From IMG/VR virus record IMGVR_UViG_3300028490_000394: a DNA stretch of 64,000 bases, one strand, 5' to 3'. Source of the DNA: an uncultured virus (IMG/VR IMGVR_UViG_3300028490_000394) (taxonomy: Duplodnaviria > Heunggongvirae > Uroviricota > Caudoviricetes). Shown in pieces: positions 1-58,726 of this stretch. Both the position numbers and the translations under genes were made by a program. Every line of letters begins with the position of its first letter. Position 1 is the stretch's first letter. Below the pieces are notes generated by a model. It was given only the letters and a program-made list of their open reading frames with translations, was not told the origin of the DNA and did not search any database.

Positions 1-390
1 TTAGCACTCTCTAAAAATAGCCTTTATTGCCGGTATATCGTCGACCATAGTCAATACCCTATTTCTTTCTATTCCATTTTCATTGATTAAGTATTCATAG
101 AATTTTGTAATTGATTTGTCATTTACTTTTTTCATATCTTTTAAGTATTCATAAACTGAATATGCTATTTCATTATCTGTTTCATGTAGCTCTATACTAA
201 AGTATTTCTCTAGAAAAATATATTGTTTAAACTTTGTGAATACAAATAGTGCTGAGATATGGTTTGGATTTGATTTTCGCCTTACGTATTCTTGTAGCTC
301 TTCAAGTTTTTTTAGAGCGAAGTCTTGATAGTCTTTATCTATACGTTTGTTCTTTGTATGTTTCTTTATAATGTTTTCAAATTTTTTCAA
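1..390 (-). CDS. hypothetical protein
   Basis: 129-aa ORF with stop at 1-3; no recognisable motif. Confidence 0.6.
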   Translation of the reverse strand: MKKFENIIKKHTKNKRIDKDYQDFALKKLEELQEYVRRKSNPNHISALFVFTKFKQYIFLEKYFSIELHETDNEIAYSVYEYLKDMKKVNDKSITKFYEYLINENGIERNRVLTMVDDIPAIKAIFREC

Positions 391-392
391 GT

Positions 393-608
393 TTAATCTT
401 CCTTTCTTAAGTATACCATATGGTGTTCTGTATCATTTGTTTTGTCTCTTTTATTAGATTTGTGTCCGATTACTACTAATGGATCACAAGTTATAGCTCT
501 ATGTAGTATAGGGTTATCTACCTGTGCACCAGCACCTACCATTATAACTTTTGGATTTCTATCTACTCTTGCTTTTAAAGTTTTTAAATGTTCTGTACTT
601 CCTGGCAT
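393..608 (-). CDS. hypothetical protein
   Basis: 71-aa ORF preceded by AAAAGGA and a TATAAT box. Confidence 0.6.
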   Translation of the reverse strand: MPGSTEHLKTLKARVDRNPKVIMVGAGAQVDNPILHRAITCDPLVVIGHKSNKRDKTNDTEHHMVYLRKED

Positions 609-652
609 AAGTATCCTTTTTTCTTTTATTATAGCAGGAGTCTTCTTAAAGT

Positions 653-1093
653 CTATTTAACTACATTGTCGTAGCATACAGCAAGGGTATGATTATCTTT
701 CTGCACTCTATAATTCTAAACTACATTGTCGTAGCATACGATTGGGATAGTTGGAGTCCATTTAATACATGATTCTAAACTACATTGTCGTAGCATACTT
801 GAATTGGCTTTTAAAATTGAATCTCAGCAGATTCTAAACTACATTGTCGTAGCATACCATTACTCTCTTTATGACTAATCTTTATAGCTATTCTAAACTA
901 CATTGTCGTAGCATACCAGTAATCGGATTCTATGCAACTTCTTACTCAATTCTAAACTACATTGTCGTAGCATACTTGTTATTGTCAATAAAGTTATTTT
1001 AGAGGTTATTCTAAACTACATTGTCGTAGCATACCAATATATATAGTTATAGCAGATAGTTATAATATTCTAAACTACATTGTCGTAGCATAC
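653..1093 (-). CRISPR. CRISPR array, type I-F-like: 8 repeats of 27 bp, 7 spacers (one 33 bp, six 32 bp)
   Basis: ATTCTAAACTACATTGTCGTAGCATAC at 713, 772, 831, 890, 949, 1008 and 1067; degenerate trailer copy at 653-679. On the minus strand GTATGCTACGACAATGTAGTTTAGAAT forms a GCTAC/GTAGT hairpin followed by an 8-nt TTTAGAAT handle, like I-F CTTAGAAA. Confidence 0.97.
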
Positions 1094-1163
1094 TATAGAG
1101 AAAATAGTTAAAAGACTGGTACTCTCTTCAATATTAGACATATTAAAGAAAATACCCAAATTT

Positions 1164-1793
1164 TTATTGCTTTCTTTTTCCTTTTTTTACAAAACCATAA
1201 GAATCGACCTTCTCAGCGAGAGAATCGAAGTCTATTATATCAAAATTAGTTCTAGTAAAGAATGTCTTAAAAAAATTTCGGTTTTTATTAGAAGTAAAGG
1301 ATAGATATGGTCCATTATCCTTCATTTTCTTTTGAATGTCTTTAATCACCATATCTATTTCTTTAAATAGTTTATATGACTTAAATATTTGTTTATGTAG
1401 TGGACGTGGATTTGTCCAATTCATTTCTCTCACAAAATCTTGAAAAGAGTTTTCTGATAATTCTTTTTCATTTTTTTGTATAAATTTTAGTAAACTATTT
1501 CTATTTAGAGAAGAACCTTTATTTCTTAATAAACACCCTTCTATTTTTTCTACAGCTTCTTCTTTTATATCTCCCTGGTCTAGCATTAATATATAAACAA
1601 ATGATTCTTTTAATTCTATTAAAAAGTCCTCTTTTACATATATATCTAGTTGTCCACCATGACTTATTCCATTTAGTTTTGGAAGATCTATGAGGTATAA
1701 ATTTTCTTTTGAAGAATTATGTAACTCTTGTACTATTTGATTTATACCTGTATAGCTTTCTTCTAGTATTTTTATTGATATTTTATATATCAT
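1164..1793 (-). CDS. cas6f: divergent Cas6f (Csy4) crRNA endoribonuclease
   Basis: Last gene of the cas operon; N-terminal ELH His, PYLSFTS (compare Csy4 PFVTLRS) and C-terminal DSYGF loop. Confidence 0.7.
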   Translation of the reverse strand: MIYKISIKILEESYTGINQIVQELHNSSKENLYLIDLPKLNGISHGGQLDIYVKEDFLIELKESFVYILMLDQGDIKEEAVEKIEGCLLRNKGSSLNRNSLLKFIQKNEKELSENSFQDFVREMNWTNPRPLHKQIFKSYKLFKEIDMVIKDIQKKMKDNGPYLSFTSNKNRNFFKTFFTRTNFDIIDFDSLAEKVDSYGFVKKGKRKQ

Positions 1794-2881
1794 TATTTAC
1801 CTTTGTTTTGGAAGAGACCGCCTCTTACTAAATTCATATATACATAAAAAAGTTCTTCAGAATTTAATACTGTGCTTATCTCTTTATTTGAGTTTACAGC
1901 TTCTAATAGTTTATCTATCATAGGAAAAACTTTTTGTTCGTCACTTCTAAAGTCCTCAAAAAACTTTGTTGAGGTACCAGTCGGTTCTATTGGAATTACT
2001 AATGGATTTGCGGTATTAACGTTTAAATCGTAGAACGTGTCCACTGTTCTAATCGCATTTGATATTTTTTCTGGAGATAATCCAAAGACTGGTTCTTTAG
2101 TTGATTTTTTAAAAGAAACACATTTATACATTTCTTTTTCTTTATCGTCTTTTTTTGTTGAAAATAATTCTGAAGGATAAATATATGCTCCTCCACCTAT
2201 CATGAAAGTTGTTGTTATATTTAAAGTTAAAGACTCTATAGAATCTTGTTCTTTAACTATATATTTACTAATCAACCCTGATAATCTTTCAAATGATTCA
2301 TTTTCAGAATATAAGTCATTTGCTGCTCCTGTTTCTAAAGATAGTGCAAAAGGTGCTTTTTTATATATACGCGCATTTTCATTAAATTCTAGAGATCCTT
2401 TTTCTATTTCTCCTATTTCATTTACAACTTCAAAATCTATTTTTGTTGTTATTTTTTTAGCAAGATCTCTATTTCTAAACCCTACTGAACCATTAACTAT
2501 ATTATATGCAATTCCCATACCTACTGCACTTGTAACTATTTCATTTTCTTTAAGTTCTGTTATGATTTTGTTGAAGGCTTCTAAACTTGATACTTTTGAT
2601 ACTTTTATTTTATCTGGGATATTATTTACTCCCAGAATTGTTAATTTGTAATTTAACACAAGATCGTCTTGATCATTATTTAAGAAAACTTTTTCTCTAA
2701 TAGGTGTTGGATTTGGACCTTCTGTATCTTTCTTATGTTCTATAGCACCTTTGACCCCTACATTTATTAACTTTTCAGAGGAGATCCCTTTATTTATAAA
2801 TGCACCTTCACTATACTCAATTGCTCTTTTTATACTTAATACTGTTGGTAAATTTTGTAAACCTGTTTTTTCTTTTGCCAT
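1793..2881 (-). CDS. cas7f: Cas7f (Csy3) Cascade backbone
   Basis: LPTVLSIKR, SPEKISNAIRTVDTFY, IPIEPTG and NLVRGGLF match Csy3 motifs; start moved to MAKE after AAGGA. Confidence 0.9.
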   Translation of the reverse strand: MAKEKTGLQNLPTVLSIKRAIEYSEGAFINKGISSEKLINVGVKGAIEHKKDTEGPNPTPIREKVFLNNDQDDLVLNYKLTILGVNNIPDKIKVSKVSSLEAFNKIITELKENEIVTSAVGMGIAYNIVNGSVGFRNRDLAKKITTKIDFEVVNEIGEIEKGSLEFNENARIYKKAPFALSLETGAANDLYSENESFERLSGLISKYIVKEQDSIESLTLNITTTFMIGGGAYIYPSELFSTKKDDKEKEMYKCVSFKKSTKEPVFGLSPEKISNAIRTVDTFYDLNVNTANPLVIPIEPTGTSTKFFEDFRSDEQKVFPMIDKLLEAVNSNKEISTVLNSEELFYVYMNLVRGGLFQNKGK

Positions 2882-2885
2882 TTTT

Positions 2886-3641
2886 TTATCCTTTATGATT
2901 TGTTTCAATAATATATTGATCTTTTATTTTTTTTGTTTTCCATGAGTATTTATCATAGACCTCTTCTGTTAGCTTTTCTTTTAAGAAAGTGAATTTTGTA
3001 AATTTTATAATTGGTTCTACATAGTAATGTTCTTTTTTGTAAATAGAATCTTCTGTATTACCTTTTCCTAGAATTAACTCTCCTACACGAGATAAGGCTT
3101 TTATTCCTTTTGAACCTTTTTTTATTAAACTAGCTTCATAGATCATGTGATCTATTGAATCGAAGTTTGAATCCATTGAATATTGTGTATAACCTATTGG
3201 TCTATATATATTTTTAATGGTCGACTCTATCTGCATTTTATAGTTTATAATATTACCACCTGCAATTCTTAACTTTTTTAATATGTTAAATGCATTTAGT
3301 AAATCTTCAATCTCCAAAAATGTATGGTTCAGTTCAAATATTAGACTTACCTCAATATAACCTCTTGGCATATCTACTAAGCCGTCTGAACGTACTGGAT
3401 CCCTTGATTTCAATGTATGAGTTTTAGATTGTCCCATAAATCCATTTCTTTTATAGGTAATCATAAATCCATTACTTATTGAAAATTCTCCGTCTATTTC
3501 TTTAGAATTATTAATCTTTAATTCAATATTTTTTAATAGTGAGTGATAGACAAATGGACTTGGTAAACCATATAAAAACTCTGTTTGATAGAAATTTACA
3601 TTTACAGCATTTATATCTATTTTTATATAAGTTTTATTCAC
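2886..3641 (-). CDS. cas5f: Cas5f (Csy2)
   Basis: YGLPSP and LRIAGGNI motifs typical of Csy2; operon position. Confidence 0.85.
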   Translation of the reverse strand: MNKTYIKIDINAVNVNFYQTEFLYGLPSPFVYHSLLKNIELKINNSKEIDGEFSISNGFMITYKRNGFMGQSKTHTLKSRDPVRSDGLVDMPRGYIEVSLIFELNHTFLEIEDLLNAFNILKKLRIAGGNIINYKMQIESTIKNIYRPIGYTQYSMDSNFDSIDHMIYEASLIKKGSKGIKALSRVGELILGKGNTEDSIYKKEHYYVEPIIKFTKFTFLKEKLTEEVYDKYSWKTKKIKDQYIIETNHKG

Positions 3642-5292
3642 AACATTCCTCCCTTATTAGTTTATTTAAATCTATATAAAAAAATCTATCCTTTAAGTAA
3701 GATTCTTTAAATTGTATTTCTTCTTTTTCACTATTCACACATTTATTCCAGAATTGATTGGTATATAGAACTTCATTTGTAGAAAATAAATCTTCTAATT
3801 CCTCTTTTTCATATAGTTCAAAAATAATATTTATCTTATTTCTTAATATATTTTTAACTAATTGCTCTAAAGTTTCTGAAACTAAACGCATGTTTTTTTT
3901 GCTATATTGATTTAGTCCACCTATTGATTCATATCTTTTTTGTGCACTACTTAGATTAAAGTGTATACTTTTTAACTCTCTTGTATTCTCCATGCTTGTT
4001 AAAATAATGGATATCAATTCTTTTTCTTTTTGTTCTTTTGTTTCTGAATTATCAAATTTATTTATAAAAATATCAATTTCTTTCCCGTGAGTTAGAGAAG
4101 GTATAAATCCTTTTAATACCTTTCCTTGAGTTGATAGCATGTCTATGTTTTGTTGGTTATTTTTTAATAAATTTGAACCTTCTAAGGTATTTATCCAAAT
4201 ATTTGAAATATTATTCAAATCTTCTTCTGTAAGATACTTTGATAACATATCAAATGCTTTTTTTGAAAATATATATGTTACTTCTTCAACTGCTATTTTT
4301 TTATCTTTGATTAGTTCTAAATCTGTGAATTTATTTTTTTTTGAAAAGTTTTCTATATTTTCTTCAAGATAGTTTTTATTTTTCTTTAATTCATATAAAT
4401 GATAATTTAGTGCACTTAATAAATTCTTATTATAAAAATATATTGCAAGATTAGGAATTGAGGAAAATGTAACAAAACTATTTTCTGAGTCTATAAAGTA
4501 TGTATATTGTTTAAAATCAAAACTATTGTAATTTGGAATTGTGAAATCTTTAGTTTCTTCTTTTGATCTTTCTTTACTAAACTTTTCTAATTCATTTCTT
4601 CTATTTAAAATATCCTCTTTTTTACTTGTATTATAGAAACCTGCCCACATTCTATTTTTTAATATTGAAAAACTCTCTGATAATTTATGTCCAGATAAAA
4701 AGAAATCTTCTGATAGAGAATAACTACCTCTTACCATACTATCTGGCATGCTTTTTAATGGTAGTTTTGAATTACATAATTCTTTACAATCATGGTTATT
4801 ACTTTTTCCAAAAACATGTCTAAAATTTAACAAAGAATTCTCTAGTAAAAGGAAGGACTCACTGTTATGATTGCTATTTTTTGTTGTGAAATTTAATAAA
4901 TCTGGATAATAATTATGTATCACATTTAAGTATTTTTTAAAAAGTAAATCATAAGTTATTTTAAATTTAGTATTTGTTTTAGTTATTTCTACTTTAGCTA
5001 CATTGTCTGGAATGTCTATAAATTCTATATCTTCAATAATTTGATTTAAAATACTTCCTTCATTTGAAGGTATTAACTGACTTTTATTAATAGTTCCTTT
5101 ATATTTATATTGATTATATTCTTCTGAACTTGTTATTGACAGATCTAATATAAATAATTCTATTGAAAAATTTTTGTCTATGTAGACTCTTTTTTTTAAT
5201 AGTTTATATTTGGGATCTTGTAAAAATTTTTCTGCAGCTATAAAGAATACTTCTTCTAAATAATTTATAAAGGGTATCTTTTTTTTACTCAT
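3634..5292 (-). CDS. cas8f: Cas8f (Csy1)-like large subunit, divergent and elongated
   Basis: RHVFGKSNNHD, KQYTYF and NQQNIDML..IPSL align with Csy1 THxxKxxHPD, KQLYF and KPQNISQL..LPSL; operon position. Confidence 0.7.
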   Translation of the reverse strand: MSKKKIPFINYLEEVFFIAAEKFLQDPKYKLLKKRVYIDKNFSIELFILDLSITSSEEYNQYKYKGTINKSQLIPSNEGSILNQIIEDIEFIDIPDNVAKVEITKTNTKFKITYDLLFKKYLNVIHNYYPDLLNFTTKNSNHNSESFLLLENSLLNFRHVFGKSNNHDCKELCNSKLPLKSMPDSMVRGSYSLSEDFFLSGHKLSESFSILKNRMWAGFYNTSKKEDILNRRNELEKFSKERSKEETKDFTIPNYNSFDFKQYTYFIDSENSFVTFSSIPNLAIYFYNKNLLSALNYHLYELKKNKNYLEENIENFSKKNKFTDLELIKDKKIAVEEVTYIFSKKAFDMLSKYLTEEDLNNISNIWINTLEGSNLLKNNQQNIDMLSTQGKVLKGFIPSLTHGKEIDIFINKFDNSETKEQKEKELISIILTSMENTRELKSIHFNLSSAQKRYESIGGLNQYSKKNMRLVSETLEQLVKNILRNKINIIFELYEKEELEDLFSTNEVLYTNQFWNKCVNSEKEEIQFKESYLKDRFFYIDLNKLIREECCE

Positions 5293-7937
5293 TTTTTCTC
5301 CTTTGTTAATTTAAATCCTATATTTGTAAATTCAATTTTTAACATGTATTCTTTTTCCTTATTTATATTTATAGAAAATGTATTAAATCTTTTATATCCA
5401 TTTTCTTTTTTTAGAAATTTATTTTTCCAGGTATTAAAACCTTTAAAAATTTCTCTATTTACATTTTCTATATTCATTCCAATTATTGGACTTTCATTAT
5501 AAACCGTTTCATATTGAAAGGCATGTTCTTTATTTTTTCCTGATTTTATTTTAGGTTCTATATGCATAATATCATTATTATTATCTATATAGAATTGTTG
5601 AGTCCCTTCATTTTGTCTAAAGTCGGTATAAAAACCAAAATTAGATTCTCTTGTATTGTATACTAAAAATCTATTAAAGAAGCTTAACCCTTCAAAATCT
5701 TTTATATATGTGTCTGAAAAATTTAACTTCTTCTCTATTGCTAGGTTTTCATGTACTGCTAATAGATTTTTATTTTCGTCTTGCTCAAATATATGTTTGT
5801 TTGTTGATAAGAATTCTTCTTCTTTTACTAAATCTGATAAATCATGTAAACCTGTGTGACCAACGAATTCATTTCCTTCTTCAAAACCTGGTTGGGAATA
5901 AATTTTAGTTATCCTACCTTGTTGTAAATTAAAGTTTTTATTTAATATTACTATATTTGTATTAGTATTATTTTCTCTATATCTATGTCTATAAACTCTA
6001 CCACTACTTTGTATAATGCTTCTTGTTGACGAAGGTTCTGTTATATGCCAATCAAAATCATGATCTCTACCAACTTCTTCCACTGGGCTTGCTATTACAA
6101 TTACTATGTTATTTTTTTGAATATTATCTTTCATAAATTCTTTTTCATATAATTTATCTTTTTTTCTTTCCAGTAATATATCTAATTGTTTTTCTATATA
6201 AGAACGTTCAAGTAAAGTAAATTGCGCATGATATACTATGATTTTAATATTATGATTATGTAATTCTGGTTCAATGATTTTGATTAATGAAAATATCTCT
6301 TTTACATGTGCAATTCTTATTAACCCTGCTGAAAATTTATTTCCTTTGCTATCTACTTCATTATTGTTTTCATGTAGTTCAAGTGCGCATTGTAATATAT
6401 CTGTTTTTTTAAGATCTTTTATCTTTGTATTATTTTTTGACACCGTGTTCTTAATCACAATACTAGTAGCTTCTTTCCATGAAATTTCAAAATCCATTAT
6501 ATTTAGTCTTTTATTTGTAAAATCTGAAATATATAAGCAATTGATTTCTTTATATGTATTCTTTGCCTTTATACCATTCATAAATGCCTCATAATAGGCT
6601 TTTGCTAGTGCTGGGTATGGTGTCGCAGTACTTAGTATAAGATTGACTCCATAATAGCCTGCTAGAAAGATTAAATTTAAAACTGATTTTTGGTCTTCTA
6701 AACCTAGTTCGTCTACTTCGTCAATTATAAGGTCTGAAGTTATCAACCTTATAGTTGGATTAATATGGTTAGACCTTCTATAATCTGTGGCTTTAATCAT
6801 GTAATCAATTGTTGAAATTAAAATAGGTGTATCTAAAAAGTTCGCGACATTTCTTGAAAAATAGTCCTTATCTTTAAAATTTGACTGCCTGTCTATTGAT
6901 AATTCTGGCTCGTCTACTTTTTCTTCTTTATTATATGTTTGATATATATCTGTAATTGATTTAGAACCAATTAAAACATTTATATCTTCCTCTTTAAATA
7001 TCTTTAAATTTGTGTATGCAGTACCTGTTTGTAAAGTTAAAGTTCTTAAACCTTGTATTACTGTTAATCTATTCTTTTTGTTTATTAAACTACTATATTT
7101 TAATCCAAACCTTGTTTTCCCTGAACCTGTAGAGGACGATAGAAATGTTAATGTGGGGATATCTTTATTTATATTATCTTTTGCAAACTGTATTGACTTT
7201 TCTTGCCATTTAAATTTATCTATTTCAGTGGTTTCATGTATTATAGAGTCTAAATTTGTTTCTGACCATTTACTAAATGGATTTTTATTTTGAAAAAATA
7301 TTTCTTCTGCAAAGTTTATTTTAGAATTTACTGCTGCAATATGTTCTGAATATTTTTGATAATTATTATTTAAATCTTTTGCACTTAAATCTTTTTTATA
7401 ATTTTTATGATTATTATTGAATTTCACAGTTGATCCTATATGATCTGCTAGGATTAAAGAATTTCGGAGATCTATAATCTCATTAATTGGGATTGAAATG
7501 TTTGCTATTTTTTTTAAATCATTTTTTGCCTTATCGAAAATTTCTTTTGATATGATTCTAAAATCTTTTATTTTATCGTCCGTAAGGTTATGTAAATAAA
7601 CAAAACTAGTGTTTACAGGTATCGAACCTATATTTGATATTTCTGGAAGTCTATGGTGTGTTCCCATTATATATAGTAAGTTATATATATTTGGAGTATT
7701 TTTTCTTATTTCTTCAGAAATATATGCTGTCTTTTTTACTCTATTCTTTATAAATAATAAATAAGATTCCTCATTATATTCTTTATTTTTTATGATATAT
7801 TCAAAAATTAAAATTGTTAAATAGGAGTGATTTACTATACTTTTATATTTCTTATCTTTAAGTATTTTCTGAAAATGAAATGTATTTTTACCTAAATCAT
7901 GATACTTAGCTATAAAACTTAATATTTCTTTTCTCAA
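5289..7937 (-). CDS. cas3: type I-F Cas3 HD nuclease-helicase without the N-terminal Cas2 domain
   Basis: HDLGK, THH, LADH..SEH, STGSGKT, GLRTLTLQTG, DEVDE, EVGRDHDFDW and QSSGRVYRHR; likely start is TTG at 7937 after AAGGA, since the ORF-track start at 7994 lies inside a CRISPR spacer. Confidence 0.93.
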   Translation of the reverse strand: MRKEILSFIAKYHDLGKNTFHFQKILKDKKYKSIVNHSYLTILIFEYIIKNKEYNEESYLLFIKNRVKKTAYISEEIRKNTPNIYNLLYIMGTHHRLPEISNIGSIPVNTSFVYLHNLTDDKIKDFRIISKEIFDKAKNDLKKIANISIPINEIIDLRNSLILADHIGSTVKFNNNHKNYKKDLSAKDLNNNYQKYSEHIAAVNSKINFAEEIFFQNKNPFSKWSETNLDSIIHETTEIDKFKWQEKSIQFAKDNINKDIPTLTFLSSSTGSGKTRFGLKYSSLINKKNRLTVIQGLRTLTLQTGTAYTNLKIFKEEDINVLIGSKSITDIYQTYNKEEKVDEPELSIDRQSNFKDKDYFSRNVANFLDTPILISTIDYMIKATDYRRSNHINPTIRLITSDLIIDEVDELGLEDQKSVLNLIFLAGYYGVNLILSTATPYPALAKAYYEAFMNGIKAKNTYKEINCLYISDFTNKRLNIMDFEISWKEATSIVIKNTVSKNNTKIKDLKKTDILQCALELHENNNEVDSKGNKFSAGLIRIAHVKEIFSLIKIIEPELHNHNIKIIVYHAQFTLLERSYIEKQLDILLERKKDKLYEKEFMKDNIQKNNIVIVIASPVEEVGRDHDFDWHITEPSSTRSIIQSSGRVYRHRYRENNTNTNIVILNKNFNLQQGRITKIYSQPGFEEGNEFVGHTGLHDLSDLVKEEEFLSTNKHIFEQDENKNLLAVHENLAIEKKLNFSDTYIKDFEGLSFFNRFLVYNTRESNFGFYTDFRQNEGTQQFYIDNNNDIMHIEPKIKSGKNKEHAFQYETVYNESPIIGMNIENVNREIFKGFNTWKNKFLKKENGYKRFNTFSININKEKEYMLKIEFTNIGFKLTKEKK

Positions 7938-7955
7938 TAAAAATTCCTTTTTGTG

Positions 7956-8041
7956 TTTTTTTACTACATTGTCGTAGTATACCATGTGAAACATATCAAC
8001 TTAGCCATAGCTTAATTCTAAACTACATTGTCGTAGTGTTA
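7956..8041 (-). CRISPR. repeat-spacer-repeat mini-array in the cas3 leader
   Basis: Variant repeats at 7956-7982 (TTTTTTTACTACATTGTCGTAGTATAC) and 8015-8041 (ATTCTAAACTACATTGTCGTAGTGTTA) flank a spacer of exactly 32 bp (7983-8014). Confidence 0.9.
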
Positions 8042-8216
8042 TTTTTAAACAATACTATAATTTTACTTAAAGTATATTTAAAACTAATAGCTAATAATTT
8101 AGTATGTAGTAAAAAACAACATATTATTGCATTAAGTTGAATATTATCTTACCTTGACAAACTGTTAGTACAGAAATCAATAAATATATGATATACTTTA
8201 TTCAAAAAGGATTACC

Positions 8217-9113
8217 ATGATAATGAAGGAATTTATACCTAAACAGGCCAGCTCTACCTCTTTTAAGAAAGGTTATGAAAATGAAAAGGACGCCGCATAT
8301 TATATTGATTTTTCTTTCAAAAATACTAAAAATTCTATTGTCTTGCATGATCTTAATTTAGAGTTTGAAGGACAAAAAGCTCAAATAGACCATTTACTTA
8401 TTTCTAGACTTGGAATTTATGTTCTTGAGAGTAAGTTCTTCAGTGGAGATATTATTATTGATTCCCATGGAGCTTGGACTGTTAAATATGGAGACAAGGA
8501 ATATAGTATCCCTTCTCCTATTGAACAGAATGATCGACATATAATGATTGTTGAAAAAATACTAAAAAAGTCCGGACTGTTTCCTTCCGTCTTAGGTCTA
8601 TCTATGCTTCCTAAAATACATAATTACATTCTACTGTCTACACAAACTAAACTTCCTGTTGAATGTCCAAAAGAAGTTATTAAACAAGATACTTTACTGA
8701 ATACTATTATTTCTCGAGGTGAATCTGATATCTTAGGGGCAATTGTTGCAATATCTAAAATTATTAGTTCTGACACTGCCATTGCAGTTGCTAATAAGCT
8801 ATTATCTTTTAACAGAGAGCCAGTACAAAAAATATCTAAAACTAAGGTAAAAATTAAAGTACCAGAGCCTGACGTATCGATAGTTGAAGAAGTACTTGAA
8901 CCAGTTACTGTTACAAAGCGTACTTTTGAAGAGCTAAAAGCAATTCGTACGGACTTATCTAAGACTTTTAAGGTTAAGGCTTATTATATCTTCTCAGATA
9001 AGACTCTTCAAGAAATATTAGAAAAGGATCCTTTAAATAAAGAAGATATGCTTAAGATACATGGTGTTGGTGAAGTTAAATTTGAAAAATATGGAAAATT
9101 CTTTTTAAGATAA
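8217..9113 (+). CDS. NERD nuclease-related domain plus C-terminal HRDC domain protein
   Basis: AQIDHLLISRLGIYVLESK and SPIEQNDRH (NERD); AYYIFSDKTL..IHGVGEVKFEKYG (HRDC). Confidence 0.85.
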   Translation: MIMKEFIPKQASSTSFKKGYENEKDAAYYIDFSFKNTKNSIVLHDLNLEFEGQKAQIDHLLISRLGIYVLESKFFSGDIIIDSHGAWTVKYGDKEYSIPSPIEQNDRHIMIVEKILKKSGLFPSVLGLSMLPKIHNYILLSTQTKLPVECPKEVIKQDTLLNTIISRGESDILGAIVAISKIISSDTAIAVANKLLSFNREPVQKISKTKVKIKVPEPDVSIVEEVLEPVTVTKRTFEELKAIRTDLSKTFKVKAYYIFSDKTLQEILEKDPLNKEDMLKIHGVGEVKFEKYGKFFLR

Positions 9114-9159
9114 GCTGTCTACAAGTATACTTATTGTATAATGCGTACAAAGGAGTCTC

Positions 9160-9498
9160 ATGTCAAAAATTTTAGGAGATTGTCCTATCTGTGACGGTCA
9201 CATTATTCAACGTGAAAATTCATATGGTTGTACAAATGCTAATTGGCAGCATGACGACCATTTTGACGAACTACAAAATACCGGGTGTCGATATTCTATT
9301 CATAAAGAAAGTTTAAAGCGCTATGGCAAGAGAAAGGTCTCTGCTACTGATATTCAGAAACTTTTCAAAAATGGTTTCTTTACTGCAAAGCTGAGAAGTA
9401 GATTTAAAAAAGAATACTATAAATATGTCATGGTAAATGACGAGTATGGTATTGAAGTTGATTTCAACACAGAAGTTGAAGAAAAGGATATTAAATGA
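9160..9498 (+). CDS. stand-alone topoisomerase C-terminal repeat / zinc-ribbon protein
   Basis: LGDCPICDG..YGCTN..GCRYSI..KLFKNG..LRSRFKKEY pattern. Confidence 0.65.
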   Translation: MSKILGDCPICDGHIIQRENSYGCTNANWQHDDHFDELQNTGCRYSIHKESLKRYGKRKVSATDIQKLFKNGFFTAKLRSRFKKEYYKYVMVNDEYGIEVDFNTEVEEKDIK

Positions 9499-9896
9499 AA
9501 AAAGCATTTATTGCTACACCTATGAGTGCATTCTCCAAAGAAGAGTATGCTGAACTATCAAAAACAATTAAGGAGATTCAACTTGAATCTGATTATGAAA
9601 TCTTTGCTGAGATAACTACTGTTACTCTGGATACGTTCTTACCACCTTCAGAAGCTTTAGATAACGATTTGGCAGCTATTCGCCAGTCAGACGTATTCAT
9701 AGCTATATATCCTAAACAAGTCCTTACAAGTCTATTCTTAGAGCTTGGTTATGCTATGGCAAATAAGAAAGAAATATTTATTTTTGTCAAAGATAAAAAA
9801 GCACTTCCTTTTCTTCTATTAGATCACCCTGGTGTTATTGAGTATAAAGATAATAAGCAGCTTAACGAATTTATTATGGGAGTACTATCTGTATGA
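9495..9896 (+). CDS. nucleoside 2-deoxyribosyltransferase / N-glycosidase family protein
   Basis: FIATPM, DLAAIRQSDVFIA and ELGYAMANKK motifs. Confidence 0.8.
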   Translation: MKKAFIATPMSAFSKEEYAELSKTIKEIQLESDYEIFAEITTVTLDTFLPPSEALDNDLAAIRQSDVFIAIYPKQVLTSLFLELGYAMANKKEIFIFVKDKKALPFLLLDHPGVIEYKDNKQLNEFIMGVLSV

Positions 9897-10234
9897 AAAT
9901 TTTTATAAAAACTCCTATTGCATGTTCAAGTTCTAATGAGTCTACTAAATTATTGAAAAAACTTTTTAAGAGACGAAAGAAAAGTATTTTAGACCTTGAG
10001 ATAAATAAACCTATTCCACTTCACGATAATACGACTGTTATTGTTTTTTTGCCACAAAATGGAAGCCCTCGTAAAGATTACTTAGAATATATAGAGTTTT
10101 TGAATAGTTTTAACTTAAGTCTTATTGTTTTTGCAAAGCATGAGAGAGATATTCCTATTTTCCTTGAAGAACTTCCTACAATCATTTACAAAAATAAAAA
10201 TTTAAAAGAACTTCTTCAAAGAATTATCTATTAG
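9893..10234 (+). CDS. degenerate paralog of the upstream NDT-like protein
   Basis: Shares KIFIKTPI and IPIFL..IIYKN with its neighbour; the ELGYA motif is not conserved. Confidence 0.45.
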   Translation: MKIFIKTPIACSSSNESTKLLKKLFKRRKKSILDLEINKPIPLHDNTTVIVFLPQNGSPRKDYLEYIEFLNSFNLSLIVFAKHERDIPIFLEELPTIIYKNKNLKELLQRIIY

Positions 10235-10413
10235 AGCTTTCTTTTACGTTTAGCTACTTTGCTGGTATCTTTGTGTTTACAGTTTCTGCAGCGTTCTCCT
10301 GGGCCAACTAGACAGGCGTCACATGTACAGCACCAGTACATTCCTTTTCTTGGACGTCGTGCCTTATTTCTATTTGTATACGTATATCCACTATTTTCAT
10401 TGTACTTTTTCAT
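10231..10413 (-). CDS. small basic Cys-rich (zinc-binding) protein
   Basis: CCTC..CRNC; overlaps the upstream gene. Confidence 0.5.
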   Translation of the reverse strand: MKKYNENSGYTYTNRNKARRPRKGMYWCCTCDACLVGPGERCRNCKHKDTSKVAKRKRKL

Positions 10414-10906
10414 ATAGGTCCTTTCTTAGTTTAAAAATAGAGTATATCATAATTATTATTGCAACTATGTCATATATTATCGCTGCAGGTGACAAAAGGT
10501 AGATTCCATATATTAGCCATAGTAATAATCCAATTAAATAGATATATTTCATTTTTAAAATATCTGCTTGAATATCTGCATAAATCAATACAAACAAGGC
10601 TATCACAGGCATAGATCCAAAGAATCCTTCTGTGTTATAAAAGACAAAGTACAATATTGCTATCACAGGTGTGCTATATTTCACTGGTTTTAGTTGTTCT
10701 TGAGTTAGAAACAGTGATAGTATTTTTATACTTACTCCTAATATTGTTACTACGGCCCCAATTATTCCTTGATTTAAATAAACTGATAAACCTATCAGTG
10801 AAGAAGAAAGTATTCCAAACTTCCTCATTTTAGTAGTTGACTCGGCAGAAAAAGATATTACTGCAAAAATAATTGCTACATATCCTATAATTTCTGCATA
10901 AGTCAT
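10397..10906 (-). CDS. YgjV-like inner membrane protein
   Basis: Multiple TM helices; IIGYVA..SF..MRK and LWLIYGIY pattern. Confidence 0.55.
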   Translation of the reverse strand: MTYAEIIGYVAIIFAVISFSAESTTKMRKFGILSSSLIGLSVYLNQGIIGAVVTILGVSIKILSLFLTQEQLKPVKYSTPVIAILYFVFYNTEGFFGSMPVIALFVLIYADIQADILKMKYIYLIGLLLWLIYGIYLLSPAAIIYDIVAIIIMIYSIFKLRKDLYEKVQ

Positions 10907-10991
10907 GTTAAATCCTACCTTTTTTCAAAATTATATCTAACTTTTATATAATCTATGTTATACTTAAGTCATTAAAACAAAAAGGATTCCA

Positions 10992-11444
10992 ATGGAAGTA
11001 ATATATACTAGAGATTATAAAGGTAAAGAGGCAGAATCAATTGATACTGTCGCAGACGGGTTTGCACAAAACTTTCTTATCCCAAGAGGAATTGCAATTG
11101 TTGCTACAGAGGCTAATATCGAAGCCCTAAAGGTTAAGAAAGATAATGAAACCAAAGAATATAGAGCTGCTATGATTGAACGGACTACAAATAAAAAGAT
11201 TCTTGAAGAAAAGACTATTTCTATTGTAAGAAAAGGATCTACGTCTTCTGGGCAAATGATCGGTGCTGTTACTCATGCTAATATTGCCGAAGCTATTGAA
11301 AATGTAGTTGGTATTCCAGCTAATAAAAAGAAGCTACATGCTGAAACGATCAAAAAGTTTGGTCTTTATAATATTGATTATGACCTTGGTGAAGGTATTG
11401 TTGCTGTAGTTAAGCTTCATGTTGCACAAGAGGGAGTTTCTTAA
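10992..11444 (+). CDS. rplI: 50S ribosomal protein bL9
   Basis: VADGFAQNFLIPRGIA and C-terminal GAVT..IAEAI..IKKFGLY; full length. Confidence 0.9.
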   Translation: MEVIYTRDYKGKEAESIDTVADGFAQNFLIPRGIAIVATEANIEALKVKKDNETKEYRAAMIERTTNKKILEEKTISIVRKGSTSSGQMIGAVTHANIAEAIENVVGIPANKKKLHAETIKKFGLYNIDYDLGEGIVAVVKLHVAQEGVS

Positions 11445-12034
11445 TGAGTATTCTAATTAAAAAAGAGATTAAAGCTGCTCGTAAGTCTGGCGCAATTATT
11501 ATTGAACCATACACTAAAAAAAATGTAAGTGTAAATTCTGTTGACGCTACACTTTCTAAGTATTTACTTACTTATGAACCAGTTGACGTTATGTTTTCTG
11601 ACGAGTTTGATAGTTATATTGTTGTACGTAAGAAGCCAACTGCATTTATTGATATGAGAAAGAAGAATCCTGTTTATCAACTTGAGATACCTGAAGACGG
11701 TATAATTCTTATTCCTGGTATTCTTTATCTTGGTTCTACAGTTGAACAAATTGGTTCTACAGTCTTCGTTCCTATGTATGAGGGTCGTAGTTCTATGGCG
11801 CGCCTTGGTATTCAAAGTCATATCTCTGCAGGATTTGGTGATATGGGGTTTGTTTCTAATTGGACTCTTGAAATTACTGTTGTTCACCCAGTTAAATTTT
11901 ATCCTGGTGTACGTATAGGACAAGTATATTTTCATAAGACTGCAGTTTCTGCTAAGGGCAAAGATCTTTATCATGGAAAATACAATAAACAGAGTGGTCC
12001 ACAATCTTCAAAGTCTTACAAAGATTTTGAATAA
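11444..12034 (+). CDS. dcd: dCTP deaminase
   Basis: EGRSSMARLGI, AGFGDMGF..WTLEI, GVRIGQ and YHGKY. Confidence 0.9.
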   Translation: MSILIKKEIKAARKSGAIIIEPYTKKNVSVNSVDATLSKYLLTYEPVDVMFSDEFDSYIVVRKKPTAFIDMRKKNPVYQLEIPEDGIILIPGILYLGSTVEQIGSTVFVPMYEGRSSMARLGIQSHISAGFGDMGFVSNWTLEITVVHPVKFYPGVRIGQVYFHKTAVSAKGKDLYHGKYNKQSGPQSSKSYKDFE

Positions 12035-15508: not shown

Positions 15509-16747
15509 ATGAAAAATTTAAAAGCTGACTTTGTTATCGGGCTCCAATTCGGAGACGAAGGTAAAGGTAAAGTGATTGACTCTTTATTGAGTTCAAGTGT
15601 TAAGTATGACGGCGTCGTCAGAGGTAATGGTGCTGATAATGCAGGACACCAAATTGTTATTGGAGATAAAAAATTTACTTTACATTCTCTTCCTAGTGGA
15701 GTTCTTCAACCTGTCGTTAATATTATCGGCCCCGGTTGTGTTGTTAACCCTAATTCAATAGAAAAAGAAATTGATAATCTTGGTGAACACTTTATTGGTA
15801 CTCTTGTTATTTCTGAACGTTGCCCTCTTATTATGAAAAGACATGTTACTGAGGATCATGCTTTAGAAGCTCAGAAGGGTGAAAATTCCGTTGGTACTAC
15901 ATTAAAAGGTGTTGGCCCAGCTTATGCCTCTCTTAAGAACAGAACGGCGGTATTCGCCGGTGATTTACATGACATACCTGCTGCTTTAGAACGTTTCTTA
16001 TATCTTGAAGATAATGAGTTTGAAGATCTGAAAAAAGAGCTTACTATTTATGCGTCTAAAATTGGACAATATGTTAAAAGTATTAAACCTGTATTACGTG
16101 AGTTAAAACATATCCTTGTAGAGGGTGCACAAGCTACTATGCTTGATAATCTTTATGGTACTTACCCTTATGTTACGAGTTCTTCAACAACTGTTCCTGG
16201 TTTGCTTATGGGAATTGGTTTAAACCATACTCATGTTGGAAAAGTTTATGGTGTTATGAAACCTTACTCCGTCCGTGTTGGTAATGGACCTTTTGTTACT
16301 GAAATGGAACCTGATATGGCTCATAGAGTTAGAGTTCTTGGTAATGAAGTTGGCTCTACTACCGGTAGAGATAGACGTTGTGGGTGGACAGATTTTGTGC
16401 AATTACAAGAAGCTGTTGTTCTTAATGGTGTTACAGATCTTTGTCTTATGAAATCTGACGTTTTAGATTCTTTTGACGAAGTTCAATTCTGTACTGCATA
16501 TAAACTAGAACCAGGTGTTACTGAACTAGTCGAATACTTATCTCATGTTCCTTTTAGTTATAAAAATATAGAACCTTATTATGACACTTTTATGGTTTGG
16601 GATACTGAACTTTTTGGTAAAACTTTTACTAGAGATACTCTACCTATTCAACTCTCTACTATTATTACTTTTATTGAGCAGAAACTTGACGTTCCTGTTA
16701 CTTTCTTTTCTACAGGTCCAGAAAGAGACCAGACAAGCTTTCTTTAA
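15509..16747 (+). CDS. purA: adenylosuccinate synthetase
   Basis: QFGDEGKGK, NAGH, EGAQATMLD, YPYVTSS and TTGRDRRCGW. Confidence 0.93.
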   Translation: MKNLKADFVIGLQFGDEGKGKVIDSLLSSSVKYDGVVRGNGADNAGHQIVIGDKKFTLHSLPSGVLQPVVNIIGPGCVVNPNSIEKEIDNLGEHFIGTLVISERCPLIMKRHVTEDHALEAQKGENSVGTTLKGVGPAYASLKNRTAVFAGDLHDIPAALERFLYLEDNEFEDLKKELTIYASKIGQYVKSIKPVLRELKHILVEGAQATMLDNLYGTYPYVTSSSTTVPGLLMGIGLNHTHVGKVYGVMKPYSVRVGNGPFVTEMEPDMAHRVRVLGNEVGSTTGRDRRCGWTDFVQLQEAVVLNGVTDLCLMKSDVLDSFDEVQFCTAYKLEPGVTELVEYLSHVPFSYKNIEPYYDTFMVWDTELFGKTFTRDTLPIQLSTIITFIEQKLDVPVTFFSTGPERDQTSFL

Positions 16748-17037: not shown

Positions 17038-17898
17038 ATGTCGTATAAAACTGCAAAACTATGGTTAATTATTGCTGGATTACTTATATTTTCTCCATAC
17101 ATTTTAAAATATGTTTCTTCATTAAATTTTAATATCTCTAAAACTGAAACTAAAGATATCAGCTATTCTGGTACTGATACTCTTAATGCAGCTATGGGTC
17201 TTACTAAGCCTGACTCAAACCCCTCATTTTTTTCTACCATGCTTGAATCTAATGTTAATAAACAATACCAAGAAATTGTTCCTTGCTTGAATGATTCTTC
17301 TTGTACTGCTTTTTGTATGGTGATCGATATAAATTATAAATATAGTAATGATAATTATAGTTCTACATATACTAATTTTTATGAAATCTTGACAAAAAGA
17401 AATCATATATCTTCAGACTCTAGACCTTTTTTGATTTTAAATGGTAGAGATTATACTTTTGATAATTGCTTCAAGACTTATAATCCTGACGTTCGGAGCG
17501 TTGTCCGTAAAATTGCAAAGACAGAACGTCCTAGCTCTAGAACTTCAAAAAAATCTTTTCATTTTGATAAATTGAGATATTTTGAAAATTCTGGAAAGTG
17601 TTTATTTGATATCGGTAATGCTATAAGTGAAGGGGCTCCTGTTTATTGTTATGATACTACCTTTAATGTTGTTCTACAAAAATTTATTCCTACTAATAAG
17701 TCTAAACTTAATGGTTTGGTTGATTTTTTCTCTGCTAGTACAGAATACTTCATTCAAGACCTTGAACATAATCTTACATTCAATGTTGTAAATTGCTCTT
17801 CTGGTTTAGATCCTGAATATGAGTTTCGAAGTAATAAGGTTCTTTCTAATTCAACTATTTTAAATGCTACAAAAAGGTTATCAAATGAAATCAAATAG
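17038..17898 (+). CDS. membrane-anchored Cys-rich exported protein (paralog 1 of 4)
   Basis: N-terminal TM; PCL..C..C, FYE, LNGRDYTFDNC and FNVVNC. Confidence 0.75.
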   Translation: MSYKTAKLWLIIAGLLIFSPYILKYVSSLNFNISKTETKDISYSGTDTLNAAMGLTKPDSNPSFFSTMLESNVNKQYQEIVPCLNDSSCTAFCMVIDINYKYSNDNYSSTYTNFYEILTKRNHISSDSRPFLILNGRDYTFDNCFKTYNPDVRSVVRKIAKTERPSSRTSKKSFHFDKLRYFENSGKCLFDIGNAISEGAPVYCYDTTFNVVLQKFIPTNKSKLNGLVDFFSASTEYFIQDLEHNLTFNVVNCSSGLDPEYEFRSNKVLSNSTILNATKRLSNEIK

Positions 17899-18691
17899 AA
17901 CGTACGACCCAAACAAACAATCTAATACTGAAAAGGTTCTTTTATCTTTATCTGGTATCTTTTTTTCCGCTTTACTTATTGGATTGTTTTTTTCAATATT
18001 TGCAACCATGAGTGGAATTAAATCTAAGAATTTAAATGAAGCTTATGCCTCTATGACACCTTGTCTTGAGGACCCTAATTGTCAAGCACTATGTATGCCT
18101 TATGAAGTTTTTTACTATAGTGTTAATCCTAAAGGTCCTAGTACAATTGTTTTATCATATGCTTATTTCTATGAAGAATTAACTAAAGATAATCATACTT
18201 ACAAAGAAGGCTCTCATATAGTTAATCTTAATGGTCATGATTATTCTTTTGATAATTGTTATGTTACTGGTTCTCAACCTTTACCTTCTGTGGCTACTGA
18301 TATCACTGAAAATGGACGTTCTCCTATTAAAGGCGGTACAAATCCATTCCATGGTCATGTTAAAGAACTAACTATTGCTAGGGAACGTTATTTTGATATA
18401 AAAAAACTGTATACAAAAGAATCTTCTGAAATAGTATGTCGTTACACTAGAGAGAATCATGATCTTTATTATGGAAATGGGTATGTTAATCTAAGTAAAA
18501 ATGTTGACTTCTTTGTTAATGGATATGAACATTTTCTATATGATCGTGATCAAAATCTATACTTTAACGTTATGAACTGTTTTGAAGACAGTACTAGAGA
18601 TTATTCTTCTTTGACGCTTGTGTCTAATGTTCTTGGCCCTGTAAGTACTATTAAACATTCTATTTTAAGTAACGAAACGCCTCATGAATAA
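17885..18691 (+). CDS. membrane-anchored Cys-rich exported protein (paralog 2 of 4)
   Basis: Same motifs, FNVMNC. Confidence 0.75.
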   Translation: MKSNRTYDPNKQSNTEKVLLSLSGIFFSALLIGLFFSIFATMSGIKSKNLNEAYASMTPCLEDPNCQALCMPYEVFYYSVNPKGPSTIVLSYAYFYEELTKDNHTYKEGSHIVNLNGHDYSFDNCYVTGSQPLPSVATDITENGRSPIKGGTNPFHGHVKELTIARERYFDIKKLYTKESSEIVCRYTRENHDLYYGNGYVNLSKNVDFFVNGYEHFLYDRDQNLYFNVMNCFEDSTRDYSSLTLVSNVLGPVSTIKHSILSNETPHE

Positions 18692-19535
18692 GCATTTTAA
18701 AAGATATGGAATGTTTCTATTTGTGATAGTCTATGCTATTTTTGGTTATTTTTGGAATGATTATATAACTGAGGTTCGAGACACTGAATTTAATAAGTCT
18801 TTCTTAAAAGTTGAACCTTGTATTGAAGAGAATAATTGTACTATTCTTTGTCTTCCATATGAAATTTCAGATTATTTATATTCTGCAAGAGGTGGTCCTA
18901 CTCCTATACTTGGTTCGGGGTATTTCTATGATATAGTTAATTCCAGTAATTATACTAGAGAAAATAAGTCTGGATCTATCTTTGTAAATAAACATAAATA
19001 TAGTTTTGGACAATGTCATATTACCTACAGAGAAGATTTTGATAATGTGGTTAAAGAAATATCAGATAATCCAAAGAAAAAGAAAAAGATCTTTTATCTT
19101 GAATCTATTTCTGATAAGTTTCAGTACTTTACCAAAAGTAGGAATCGATTAAACAATATCATAGAATCGTATACTAATAGGAATGCAGATATACTATGTT
19201 ATTCAAAGACTTTTAGAAATGGGATCCCATTTGACCAAGACCTAGGTCTAAGTTATATTAAGCTTGGAAAGGACGTTAAATTCTTCTCTAATAGTGTTGA
19301 ATACCTTCTTACTGATAATGATACAAATGAAACATTTAACGTTATGAACTGTTTCGCTGCTAATCGTTATCACCCGGGGGATTTAGAATTGGTCTTTAAT
19401 GTCCTTGATAAAAATGATAAATCGTCTCTTACTGAACTTAGGACTACTAAAATTTATAGTTCTACGTATGAAAATGCGTTAGTTCCTACTGTTCACGACA
19501 ACTTGAAAGTTCAATACTTTAAGGAGTCTAAGTGA
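18684..19535 (+). CDS. membrane-anchored Cys-rich exported protein (paralog 3 of 4)
   Basis: Same motifs, FNVMNC. Confidence 0.75.
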   Translation: MNKHFKRYGMFLFVIVYAIFGYFWNDYITEVRDTEFNKSFLKVEPCIEENNCTILCLPYEISDYLYSARGGPTPILGSGYFYDIVNSSNYTRENKSGSIFVNKHKYSFGQCHITYREDFDNVVKEISDNPKKKKKIFYLESISDKFQYFTKSRNRLNNIIESYTNRNADILCYSKTFRNGIPFDQDLGLSYIKLGKDVKFFSNSVEYLLTDNDTNETFNVMNCFAANRYHPGDLELVFNVLDKNDKSSLTELRTTKIYSSTYENALVPTVHDNLKVQYFKESK

Positions 19536-56091: not shown

Positions 56092-56538
56092 TTAGTTTCC
56101 TGGTACTGCTGGTGCTGCTGCATTTATAACTAGAGAACCGTCTAGACAGCTATCAAATTCTACTTTTTCACTTGTATATGTTGCATTAGCTAGTGCAACT
56201 GTATAACCAGCTGAACCGTCAGTACATGTTTTAGTCGCTACTGTAATTGTATTCCCTTTAGAGAATGCTGTTCTTACATTTCCAGTTGTACATAGACCAT
56301 TGTTTTTTGTGTCTGAACCTGTTTCTCCACAAGAAATTGCTGTATATGCTTGTGCATTTGCAAATTCAGTTTGTTGTGCAATGATTGCACCTCTTGCGTC
56401 ACTCTTCATTGAGTTTGCTACCGCTACTTTTGTTGAGTCATTAAGATTTGCGATTGCAAAGCCTGCTAAGATTGAGATAATTGCCATTACGAATAGTAAT
56501 TCTACTAGGGTAAACCCTTTTTTCATTGTTGATTTCAT
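56092..56538 (-). CDS. type IV pilin / pseudopilin-like protein
   Basis: KKG|FTLVELL class III signal peptide; four Cys. Confidence 0.85.
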   Translation of the reverse strand: MKSTMKKGFTLVELLFVMAIISILAGFAIANLNDSTKVAVANSMKSDARGAIIAQQTEFANAQAYTAISCGETGSDTKNNGLCTTGNVRTAFSKGNTITVATKTCTDGSAGYTVALANATYTSEKVEFDSCLDGSLVINAAAPAVPGN

Positions 56539-58712: not shown

Positions 58713-58726
58713 TACTATACGTATAC

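Follow-up and report, generated by a model that had tools for sequence, protein, structure and literature searches.

We analysed a stretch of 64,000 nucleotides (nt) from an uncultured virus of the Caudoviricetes (IMG/VR record IMGVR_UViG_3300028490_000394), called the window below, and found on its minus strand, between positions 653 and 8041, a unit of cas genes and CRISPR repeats. We consider it probable that this locus is a type I-F-derived, interference-only module on a probable huge phage (contig of ~431 kb). In reading order the unit consists of a mini-array, cas3, an open reading frame (ORF) of 552 amino acids (aa), cas5f, cas7f, a cas6f-like gene and the main array (Table 1). All five ORFs are intact and neighbouring cas genes overlap by 1 to 23 nt; the 552-aa ORF overlaps the cas3 stop with its start and the cas5f start with its end. 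The original prediction for this DNA, made from the sequence without database searches, described a tight minus-strand cas3-cas8f-cas5f-cas7f-cas6f-array unit. The coordinates and overlaps bear out this arrangement, but the name cas8f has no support from homology and the name cas6f is supported by one profile-profile match.

The Cas3 protein belongs to the I-F lineage (PADLOC Cas3f 3.5e-112; TIGR02562 6.2e-103, 345 bits against a cut-off of 566) and aligns with the solved Cas2/3 chains in the PDB (7.6e-58 to 4e-55). The motifs listed for it in the original prediction (GLRTLTLQTG, EVGRDHDFDW and HD, HH, LADH and EH) are all found in the translation. Three in-frame starts are available, namely TTG 7937, ATG 7994 (given in the ORF list) and ATG 7985 (implied by an 898-aa database record). 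Both ATGs fall inside the mini-array, and TTG 7937, which has AAAGGA upstream of it, is the credible start. Counted from the TTG, the HD motif is at residue 13, where it had been predicted within about 12 residues of the start, and with any of the three starts it lies at most 32 residues from the N terminus. In the PDB Cas2/3 chains the same motif is at residue ~121, and among the 120 best Cas3 homologues its median position is 123, with only four others having it within the first 60 residues. When aligned to the PADLOC Cas3f profile, Cas3 residues 9 to 783 correspond to positions 114 to 908, and positions 1 to 113 of the profile remain unmatched. As the profiles and the solved Cas2/3 proteins align only from about position 114-121 on, the Cas3 protein of the window is without a Cas2 domain. 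A hidden Markov model (HMM) of the Cas2 domain, built from 10 relatives, found nothing in the six frames of the window (best E 0.57, versus 64 matches in control loci). Both results agree with the prediction of a TTG-started Cas3 with no Cas2 domain. In an alignment of 13 Cas3f proteins (this one and 12 homologues), H13, D14, H37, H94, H95, D165 and H199 are invariant, and so are G271, G273, K274 and T275 of the Walker A motif and D406, E407 and D409 of the DExD motif. The conservation of these HD, Walker A and DExD residues suggests that the nuclease-helicase is active.

The genes for spacer acquisition are missing from the window as well. Pfam found no cas1 or cas2 among all window ORFs of at least 70 aa, an HMM of 45 I-F Cas1 sequences gave a best E of 0.68 over the six frames of the window (versus 51 matches in control loci), and the Pfam scans of the window ORFs returned no Cas4-type family. 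The lack of cas1 that was predicted for the locus holds in this way for the whole 64 kb. The nearest Cas3 proteins (P0005 to P0008, 36 to 41% identity) all have an N-terminal extension of ~85 residues, which can be aligned to the Cas2 part of ordinary Cas2/3 proteins, and two of the nearest relatives are annotated with PF21384, the Cas2 domain of I-F systems. We made a FastTree phylogeny of 80 Cas3f proteins, trimmed to begin at the HD motif, in which the window Cas3 falls in a clade of six (100% support) with P0005 to P0008 and the protein of L010, a 6.4-kb metagenome contig with a guanine-plus-cytosine (GC) content of 25%; all five other members have a Cas2-like domain. In L010, cas1 (Pfam 1.5e-9) and a flagellin gene come after cas2/3. 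L010 also has a 10-repeat array in the same orientation as the mini-array of the window; the last repeat of this array is degenerate and ends 35 nt ahead of the cas2/3 start. The L010 repeat is nearly identical to that of the window and has one extra loop base and a different last base. An array abutting the cas3 start is therefore common to both clade members with visible upstream DNA (18 to 35 nt). Because the five nearest relatives all keep a Cas2-like domain, one of them beside cas1, the state without Cas2 domain and cas1 is derived, and the original claim that the Cas2 domain was lost and the nuclease kept is confirmed in this sense. As a separate observation, the first three to four spacer units of L010 (positions 1 to 300) are identical copies, which could reflect either a duplicated spacer or a faulty assembly at the end of the contig.

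The same combination was found in other places when public I-F loci were surveyed. Of 89 loci (L001 to L089), 62 have a complete Cas3 N terminus, the rest being cut by contig ends or having no motif. The Cas2 domain is present in 56 of these 62 loci, and cas1 is visible in 50 of the 56. The other six loci (L007, L018, L049, L050, L085 and L088) encode a Cas2-less Cas3f and show no cas1 in any case, with only one of the six showing at least 1.2 kb on both sides. The coincidence of cas1 loss with loss of the Cas2 domain (0/6 versus 50/56) fits a Cas2 domain that serves adaptation and not cutting. The Cas2-less label is scattered over the Cas3 tree (11 changes for 12 rows), so that these are independent losses. 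A few of the labels may be mis-called starts, as two belong to near-copies of domain-bearing proteins.

The repeat of the main array is GTATGCTACGACAATGTAGTTTAGAAT (27 nt). Seven of the eight repeats are identical, the seven spacers are all different, and in the terminal repeat (653-679) the last 8 nt, at the 3' end, are degenerate. In the fold computation each repeat has a stem of 4 to 5 bp and a 6-nt loop, and an 8-nt tail, UUUAGAAU, comes after the hairpin. The hairpin is kept in all four repeat variants and its core in all ten repeats. This layout is that of a putative Cas6f substrate. Eight spacers had been counted in the original prediction, and this total is correct, but they do not form one array: seven lie in the main array and the eighth in the separate mini-array (8041..7956). 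The mini-array consists of a repeat (8041-8015), a spacer (8014-7983) and a second repeat (7982-7956). In the first repeat the 5' part upstream of the stem is degenerate and the hairpin and 8-nt handle are intact; in the second the hairpin is intact and the 3' handle is degenerate, downstream of the stem only. Judged by its sequence, the mini-array keeps exactly the parts that one mature CRISPR RNA (crRNA) would require, which fits a frozen, selected guide. With the mini-array in the cas3 leader, Cas3 expression might be influenced by what Cas6f does at the last hairpin when it processes the RNA. The leaders of the two arrays showed no clear similarity when they were compared.

The effector subunits differ in how well they can be recognized. 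Cas7f also matches TIGR02566 (2.4e-28, 99.6 bits against a cut-off of 157.55) and PADLOC Cas7f (6.3e-29), and its best solved relative is the Csy3 protein of HNH-Cascade (PDB 8z0k, 1.3e-10); as a single query in IMG/VR it found no relatives. Cas5f matches Pfam Csy2 with 7.9e-5 (22.5 bits, below the cut-off of 25) and aligns over residues 3 to 237 with the 255-aa Cas5f chain of PDB 8w1p_H (3.6e-5). The ORF next to the main array has no match in Pfam, NCBIfam, PADLOC or PDB. Compared with 40 ORFs in the Csy4 position, it gave an hhalign Prob of 60% (E 8.5e-5, residues 3-204). This alignment brings the invariant catalytic His and the YG[LF]S motif at the C terminus into register, and the ORF is 25% identical (E 0.002) to the ORF in the cas6f position of L011. 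Its AlphaFold2 (AF2) model is unusable, with a predicted local distance difference test (pLDDT) score of 39. With moderate confidence, we regard this 209-aa ORF as a predicted Cas6f.

The 552-aa ORF between cas3 and cas5f is of a different nature. It has no match in Pfam, NCBIfam, PADLOC or PDB and no HNH domain by Pfam, and BLAST against the ORFs of the 89 I-F loci gave 0 matches. An hhalign comparison with 27 ORFs in the Csy1 position, 19 of which are Pfam Csy1, gave no signal (Prob 0.2). One distant relative, P0124, was found among 1.84 billion representatives (E 3.8e-8), with the similarity confined to 80 aa at the N terminus. Here, too, the AF2 model cannot be used (pLDDT 32), and a search of the ESM Atlas for the unassigned cas8f and cas6f candidates gave no usable match. 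From its position and size we infer that the 552-aa protein is the large subunit.

Table 1. Features of the I-F unit and its flanks in the 64-kb window
Feature	Position	Strand	Characteristics
Main CRISPR array	1093..653	-	8 repeats of 27 nt, period 59-60, 7 spacers of 32-33 nt
Leader/intergenic region, cas6f-like stop to first repeat	1094..1163 (~70 nt)	-	AT-rich terminator-like hairpin at 1156-1118
cas6f-like, 209 aa, predicted pre-crRNA endoribonuclease	1164..1793	-	adjoins array; one profile-profile match
cas7f (csy3), 371 aa, backbone subunit	1793..2908	-	Pfam PF09615 Csy3 2e-28 (100 bits; cut-off 25)
cas5f (csy2), 251 aa, short form	2886..3641	-	PADLOC Cas5f 9.7e-10
552-aa orphan ORF in cas8f (large subunit) position	3634..5292	-	position and size only
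cas3f without Cas2 domain	5289..7937	-	882 aa from TTG 7937: HD nuclease, superfamily 2 (SF2) helicase, C-terminal domain
Mini-array in cas3 leader	7956..8041	-	two repeats, one 32-nt spacer; ends 18 nt before cas3 start codon
AT-rich intergenic region between mini-array and NERD-HRDC gene	8042..8216	-	presumed promoter region of unit

We propose that the unit would be transcribed from the region upstream of the mini-array and that the Cas6f-like protein would cut each repeat at the 3' base of the hairpin. The resulting crRNAs would be ~59 nt long, with an 8-nt UUUAGAAU handle, a 32-nt guide and a 19-nt hairpin. A crRNA, Cas5f, about six Cas7f proteins and the 552-aa protein as large subunit would assemble into a Csy-like complex. 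This complex would find DNA flanked by a protospacer adjacent motif (PAM), form an R-loop and recruit free Cas3, which would shred the target. The module would have no self-sufficient spacer acquisition, and its seven plus one spacers would be fixed, unless a related Cas1-Cas2/3, for example of the L010 type, adds them in trans. Its likely use would be to attack a competing mobile element or a defence element of the host.

The original prediction had proposed a search of the spacers against Campylobacterota genomes, phages and plasmids, and this search gave no target. By blastn with the low-complexity filter on, none of the spacers matched in 50,697 phage records or 72,556 plasmids; the best phage match of the mini-array spacer had E 0.9, and the exact spacer is absent from IMG/VR. 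The best matches in 401 Campylobacterota genomes, 26/32 and 27/32, are by our estimate at chance level for AT-rich DNA. Within the window the best matches of all spacers cover 20 to 22 of 32 positions, again at chance level. The fetched I-F loci contain no target of these spacers, and the L010 spacers do not match the window. Around the unit, k-mer and seed-weighted scans with the mini-array spacer (7900-8300, 1090-1200 and 5200-5400) returned only its own site and a self-overlap that stems from its near-palindromic 5' end. The longest exact match of this spacer elsewhere in the window is 12 nt, in a helicase gene, which by our estimate is close to what chance would give in 128 kb of AT-rich sequence.

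The borders of the unit are formed by a divergent NERD-HRDC gene on one side and by two ORFs without family matches (393-608 and 1-390) on the other. One promoter-like site was found at 8082-8054; such sites are not enriched in the sequence (55 found versus a shuffle mean of 57), and terminator-like hairpins are in little excess (three versus a shuffle mean of 1.1). The GC content of the cas region is 22 to 28%, versus 30 to 35% in most of the remaining window. This is near the 25 to 26% of the contigs with the nearest relatives, which suggests that the region was captured as an island. The repeat pattern had 0 matches in the genome-contig and viral-contig collections, and megablast of window positions 1 to 12000 gave no match in the phage and plasmid collections. 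The neighbouring NERD-HRDC gene (8217-9113, plus strand) encodes a NERD domain (1.4e-21) fused to an HRDC domain (1.3e-17) and is divergent from cas3. PADLOC DpdF models matched the protein via the HRDC part only; the protein may be a nuclease that serves defence or counter-defence.

Two database records list a length of 431,381 bp for the source contig. The window contains ~96 ORFs, and about three quarters of them are without Pfam match. Encoded are ribosomal protein L9, adenylosuccinate synthetase (PurA), dCTP deaminase, a dUTPase-like protein, a ClpP-type protease, a Suv3-like helicase and RNase H; several have PHROG matches, among them matches to phage nucleotide-metabolism genes and a ClpP-type head protease. 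The closest relatives of PurA are metagenome proteins with 48 to 60% identity, and the nearest named ones are from Caminibacter/Nautiliaceae (~42%). A search with the PurA alignment in IMG/VR gave only relatives of at most 42% identity and no sister phage. The nearest named relatives of Cas3 are from Poseidonibacter and Sulfurimonas. Together, the named relatives of PurA and Cas3 weakly support a Campylobacterota host. The carrier is likely a huge phage. The original prediction of a large phage or plasmid holds in that the contig looks like that of a huge phage by its size, its ORFans, its tRNAs and its nucleotide-metabolism genes, but the window has no structural gene.

Several points weigh against the interference-only reading. 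Cas7f, Cas5f and Cas3 are all under the NCBIfam equivalog cut-offs, which makes the system very divergent, as had been stated for all its subunits in the original prediction. The 552-aa ORF has no similarity to Cas8f/Csy1 by any method, and both structure predictions failed. No protospacer was found by any of the searches described above, which leaves no basis for inferring a PAM or activity. In the 64 kb no gene for a capsid, portal, terminase or tail protein was recognized, and the phage identity is circumstantial. The scan for adaptation genes covers 64 kb (~15%) of the ~431-kb contig, and such genes may lie in the other ~367 kb. If cas1 and a stand-alone or differently fused cas2, or a second CRISPR-Cas system, were present elsewhere on the replicon and served the arrays, the system would be fully adaptive. 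The limited part of the contig that is visible allows for this, and the seven different spacers of the main array indicate that spacers were acquired at some time. However, cas1 of I-F systems adjoins cas2/3, as the survey counts show, the Cas2 domain that links Cas3f to Cas1 is gone, the leader-proximal repeat of the mini-array is degenerate in its 5' part, and nearly all huge-phage systems are without acquisition genes (Al-Shayeb et al. 2020, PMC7162821). We therefore consider a fully adaptive system quite unlikely. We find it equally hard to believe that the locus is a decaying, non-functional I-F remnant captured by the element. The extreme divergence with all matches under the NCBIfam cut-offs, the orphan ORF in the cas8f position, the short arrays with degenerate terminal repeats and the failure to find a target would all fit decay. 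Against this stand five intact ORFs with overlapping starts and stops, the invariant catalytic residues of Cas3 and the aligned catalytic His of Cas6f, the identity of seven of the eight main-array repeats with a hairpin core in all ten repeats, and the retention in the mini-array of precisely the parts of one crRNA.

The role of the mini-array and the nature of the carrier each have an alternative explanation as well. The mini-array could be a CreR-like or other regulatory cr-like RNA with which the complex represses its own promoter, instead of an interference guide. Regulatory mini-arrays beside cas3 are common in I-F1 systems, where shortened spacers partly match the Cascade promoter (bioRxiv 10.1101/2023.03.03.530964), and the mini-array of the window, whose outer repeat halves are degenerate, sits between the presumed promoter and cas3. 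However, its spacer has the full length of 32 nt, no partial seed-weighted match was found in the promoter and leader regions, and L010 has a normal 10-repeat array at the same place. A CreR-like self-regulator was rejected because no target was found in these regions, and we regard a regulatory role as very improbable. The full-length spacer and the lack of a partial target lead us to read the mini-array as a fixed interference guide. As for the carrier, it could be a megaplasmid or a small cellular genome, in which case the locus would be a host-side defence system minus its adaptation genes. Apart from the missing structural genes, the presence of ribosomal protein L9, PurA, ClpP and RNase H could be explained in this way. 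Yet about three quarters of the ORFs have no family match, there are tandem ORFan paralogues and four tandem tRNA-Met genes, the 'cellular' genes are isolated without surrounding housekeeping operons, and PurA is nearer to metagenome proteins than to cellular PurA. A non-phage carrier is thus unlikely in our opinion, and we prefer to see the locus as an interference-only module on a huge phage.

Further observations concern other genes of the window. Six tRNA genes are present at 62532-63119 (minus strand), namely four tandem tRNA-Met (CAT), one tRNA-Val (TAC) and one tRNA-Trp (CCA). The genes for ribosomal protein L9, dCTP deaminase and adenylosuccinate synthetase are found at 10992-12034 and 15509-16747 (plus strand). 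The synthetase is of full length (Pfam 6.5e-118), belongs to PHROG 1211, described by PHROGs as '2-aminooxy adenylosuccinate synthetase', and could be either a PurA or a PurZ-like enzyme. Two groups of tandem ORFan paralogues have no Pfam or PHROG match: four of ~265 to 286 aa with 25 to 34% mutual identity (17038-20329, plus strand) and three of ~331 to 349 aa with 36 to 50% identity (57648-60815, minus strand). A metallo-beta-lactamase-fold protein (34430-35197, plus strand) has a weak Apyc1 match (PF23023, 4.7e-8; 33 bits, cut-off 50), and it is possible that it is a cyclic-nucleotide-degrading counter-defence protein of the anti-Pycsar Apyc1 family. Two paralogues with 53% identity (56092-56538 and 63388-63831, minus strand) have a type IV pilin-like N-terminal methylation motif (PF07963). 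Two radical SAM proteins are encoded at 45818-46459 (plus strand) and 47664-48485 (minus strand), one of them with a QueE-like PHROG match. The helicase at 51277-53415 (minus strand) is a 712-aa protein of the Suv3-type DExQ-box family (PF22527, 2.9e-56). Suv3 helicases are best known from mitochondrial RNA degradation.

The interference-only reading adds a type I-F case to those CRISPR systems of huge phages in which the cutting machinery is retained and the genes that write the memory are gone. In the 552-aa orphan, a new type of large subunit may have come to light, and a practical outcome could be a compact five-gene Cas3-based module with a minimal one-guide array. The data may also be combined into a more far-reaching view, which we find rather unlikely as a whole. 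Huge phages of AT-rich, probably Campylobacterota, hosts would then carry a distinct I-F offshoot in which Csy1 was replaced by, or diverged into, the unrelated-looking 552-aa protein, which would recruit the Cas2-free Cas3 via a new, Cas1-independent interface. The cas3 gene would also sit within the pre-crRNA transcript, and Cas6f, by cutting or binding the last hairpin, would then match the production of Cas3 to the processing of crRNA.

Compared to the canonical I-F1 systems of Pseudomonas aeruginosa PA14 and Pectobacterium atrosepticum, the unit has the same order cas3-cas8f-cas5f-cas7f-cas6f (with cas8f here by position and cas6f as a predicted gene), the I-F Cas3 helicase-nuclease, hairpin repeats with an 8-nt handle, 32-nt spacers and arrays that flank the cas genes on both sides. 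The handle in P. aeruginosa is CUAAGAAA, versus UUUAGAAU in the window. The unit differs from I-F1 in that it has no cas1 or Cas2 domain, in its repeat of 27 instead of 28 nt, and in the 552-aa ORF in the large-subunit position, which has no detectable Csy1 homology. Type I-F2 systems have no large subunit gene and contain cas1 and cas2-3. The unit does not fit I-F2, as it has the 552-aa ORF between cas3 and cas5f and contains neither cas1 nor a Cas2 domain. With the Tn7-linked CRISPR-associated transposons (CAST) of type I-F3, the unit shares the location of an I-F system on a mobile element, the loss of cas1 and cas2 and the atypical or degenerate repeats that flank a fixed guide. In I-F3, however, Cas3 is absent and the genes are linked with tnsABC-tniQ, whereas Cas3 of the window is intact; the Pfam scans of the window ORFs found no recognizable transposase family. 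HNH-Cascade (PDB 8W1P and 8Z0K; PMC11459484 and PMC11480323) provides the closest solved Cas7f and Cas5f proteins and also has a short Cas5f of ~255 aa. It has no Cas3 and cuts via an HNH domain in Cas8, whereas the window has Cas3 and no Pfam HNH domain in the 552-aa ORF.

Among the surveyed loci, L007, L085 and L050 resemble the unit in having I-F effector genes, a Cas3f that starts at the HD motif and no cas1 on the part of the contig that is visible. Arrays are present in L050 and L085 as well. Csy3 and Csy2 are recognizable in all three, Csy4 in L050 and L085, and their Csy1-position ORFs are without Pfam match. They are not close to the unit, as they occupy other parts of the Cas3 tree. 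They have a higher GC content of 46 to 56% and show a divergent gene layout. L007, a viral contig of IMG/VR, has DarA, PAAR and baseplate-type genes. In L007 (5719-9599) and L085 (8380-12057), which are unrelated contigs, a WYL regulator lies directly upstream of the Cas2-less Cas3f, divergent from csy1-4. The combination of WYL, Cas2-less Cas3f and csy1-4 is a recurring I-F layout without cas1 in the visible contig.

The novelty claimed in the original prediction was too high. Almost all CRISPR systems of huge phages are without Cas1, Cas2 and Cas4, as stated in PMC7162821, and a 2024 review agrees that CRISPR systems of jumbo phages are without acquisition genes (PMC11656645). Moreover, the six public loci with a Cas2-less Cas3f and no visible cas1 include a viral one. 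The shedding of adaptation genes on mobile elements was already known, and the distinctive points of the unit are the deletion of the Cas2 domain and the orphan large-subunit candidate. A literature search, whose coverage left out subscription journals, found no paper on a Cas2-less Cas3f or an interference-only I-F system, and 'I-F' is absent from the main text of PMC7162821. Like the huge-phage systems, the unit lies on a contig of >200 kb, has compact arrays and no nearby Cas1, Cas2 or Cas4, and its proposed use is against competitors or host functions. In an example from PMC7162821, Cas3 is replaced by another helicase, whereas in the window a true Cas3f is kept and only the Cas2 domain is removed. 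For systems on mobile elements, the use of the host adaptation machinery in trans is the usual proposal (PMC9071438).

The I-F system of Vibrio phage ICP1 (PDB 8K22 and related entries; bioRxiv 10.1101/2024.03.09.584257) is also phage-borne, has small Cas proteins and retains Cas3 for DNA destruction. According to that preprint, ICP1 keeps cas1 and the Cas2 domain (residues 1-78), and its short Cas8f has no helical bundle, so that Cas1 must bridge Cas2/3 to the complex. In contrast, the window has neither Cas1 nor the Cas2 domain, and its large-subunit candidate is unusually long. As both Cas1 and the Cas2 domain are missing, the recruitment of Cas3 must be Cas1-independent. The contrast with ICP1, where Cas1 brings Cas2/3, means that the locus offers a natural test of how Cas3 is recruited without Cas1 and Cas2 in the I-F lineage.

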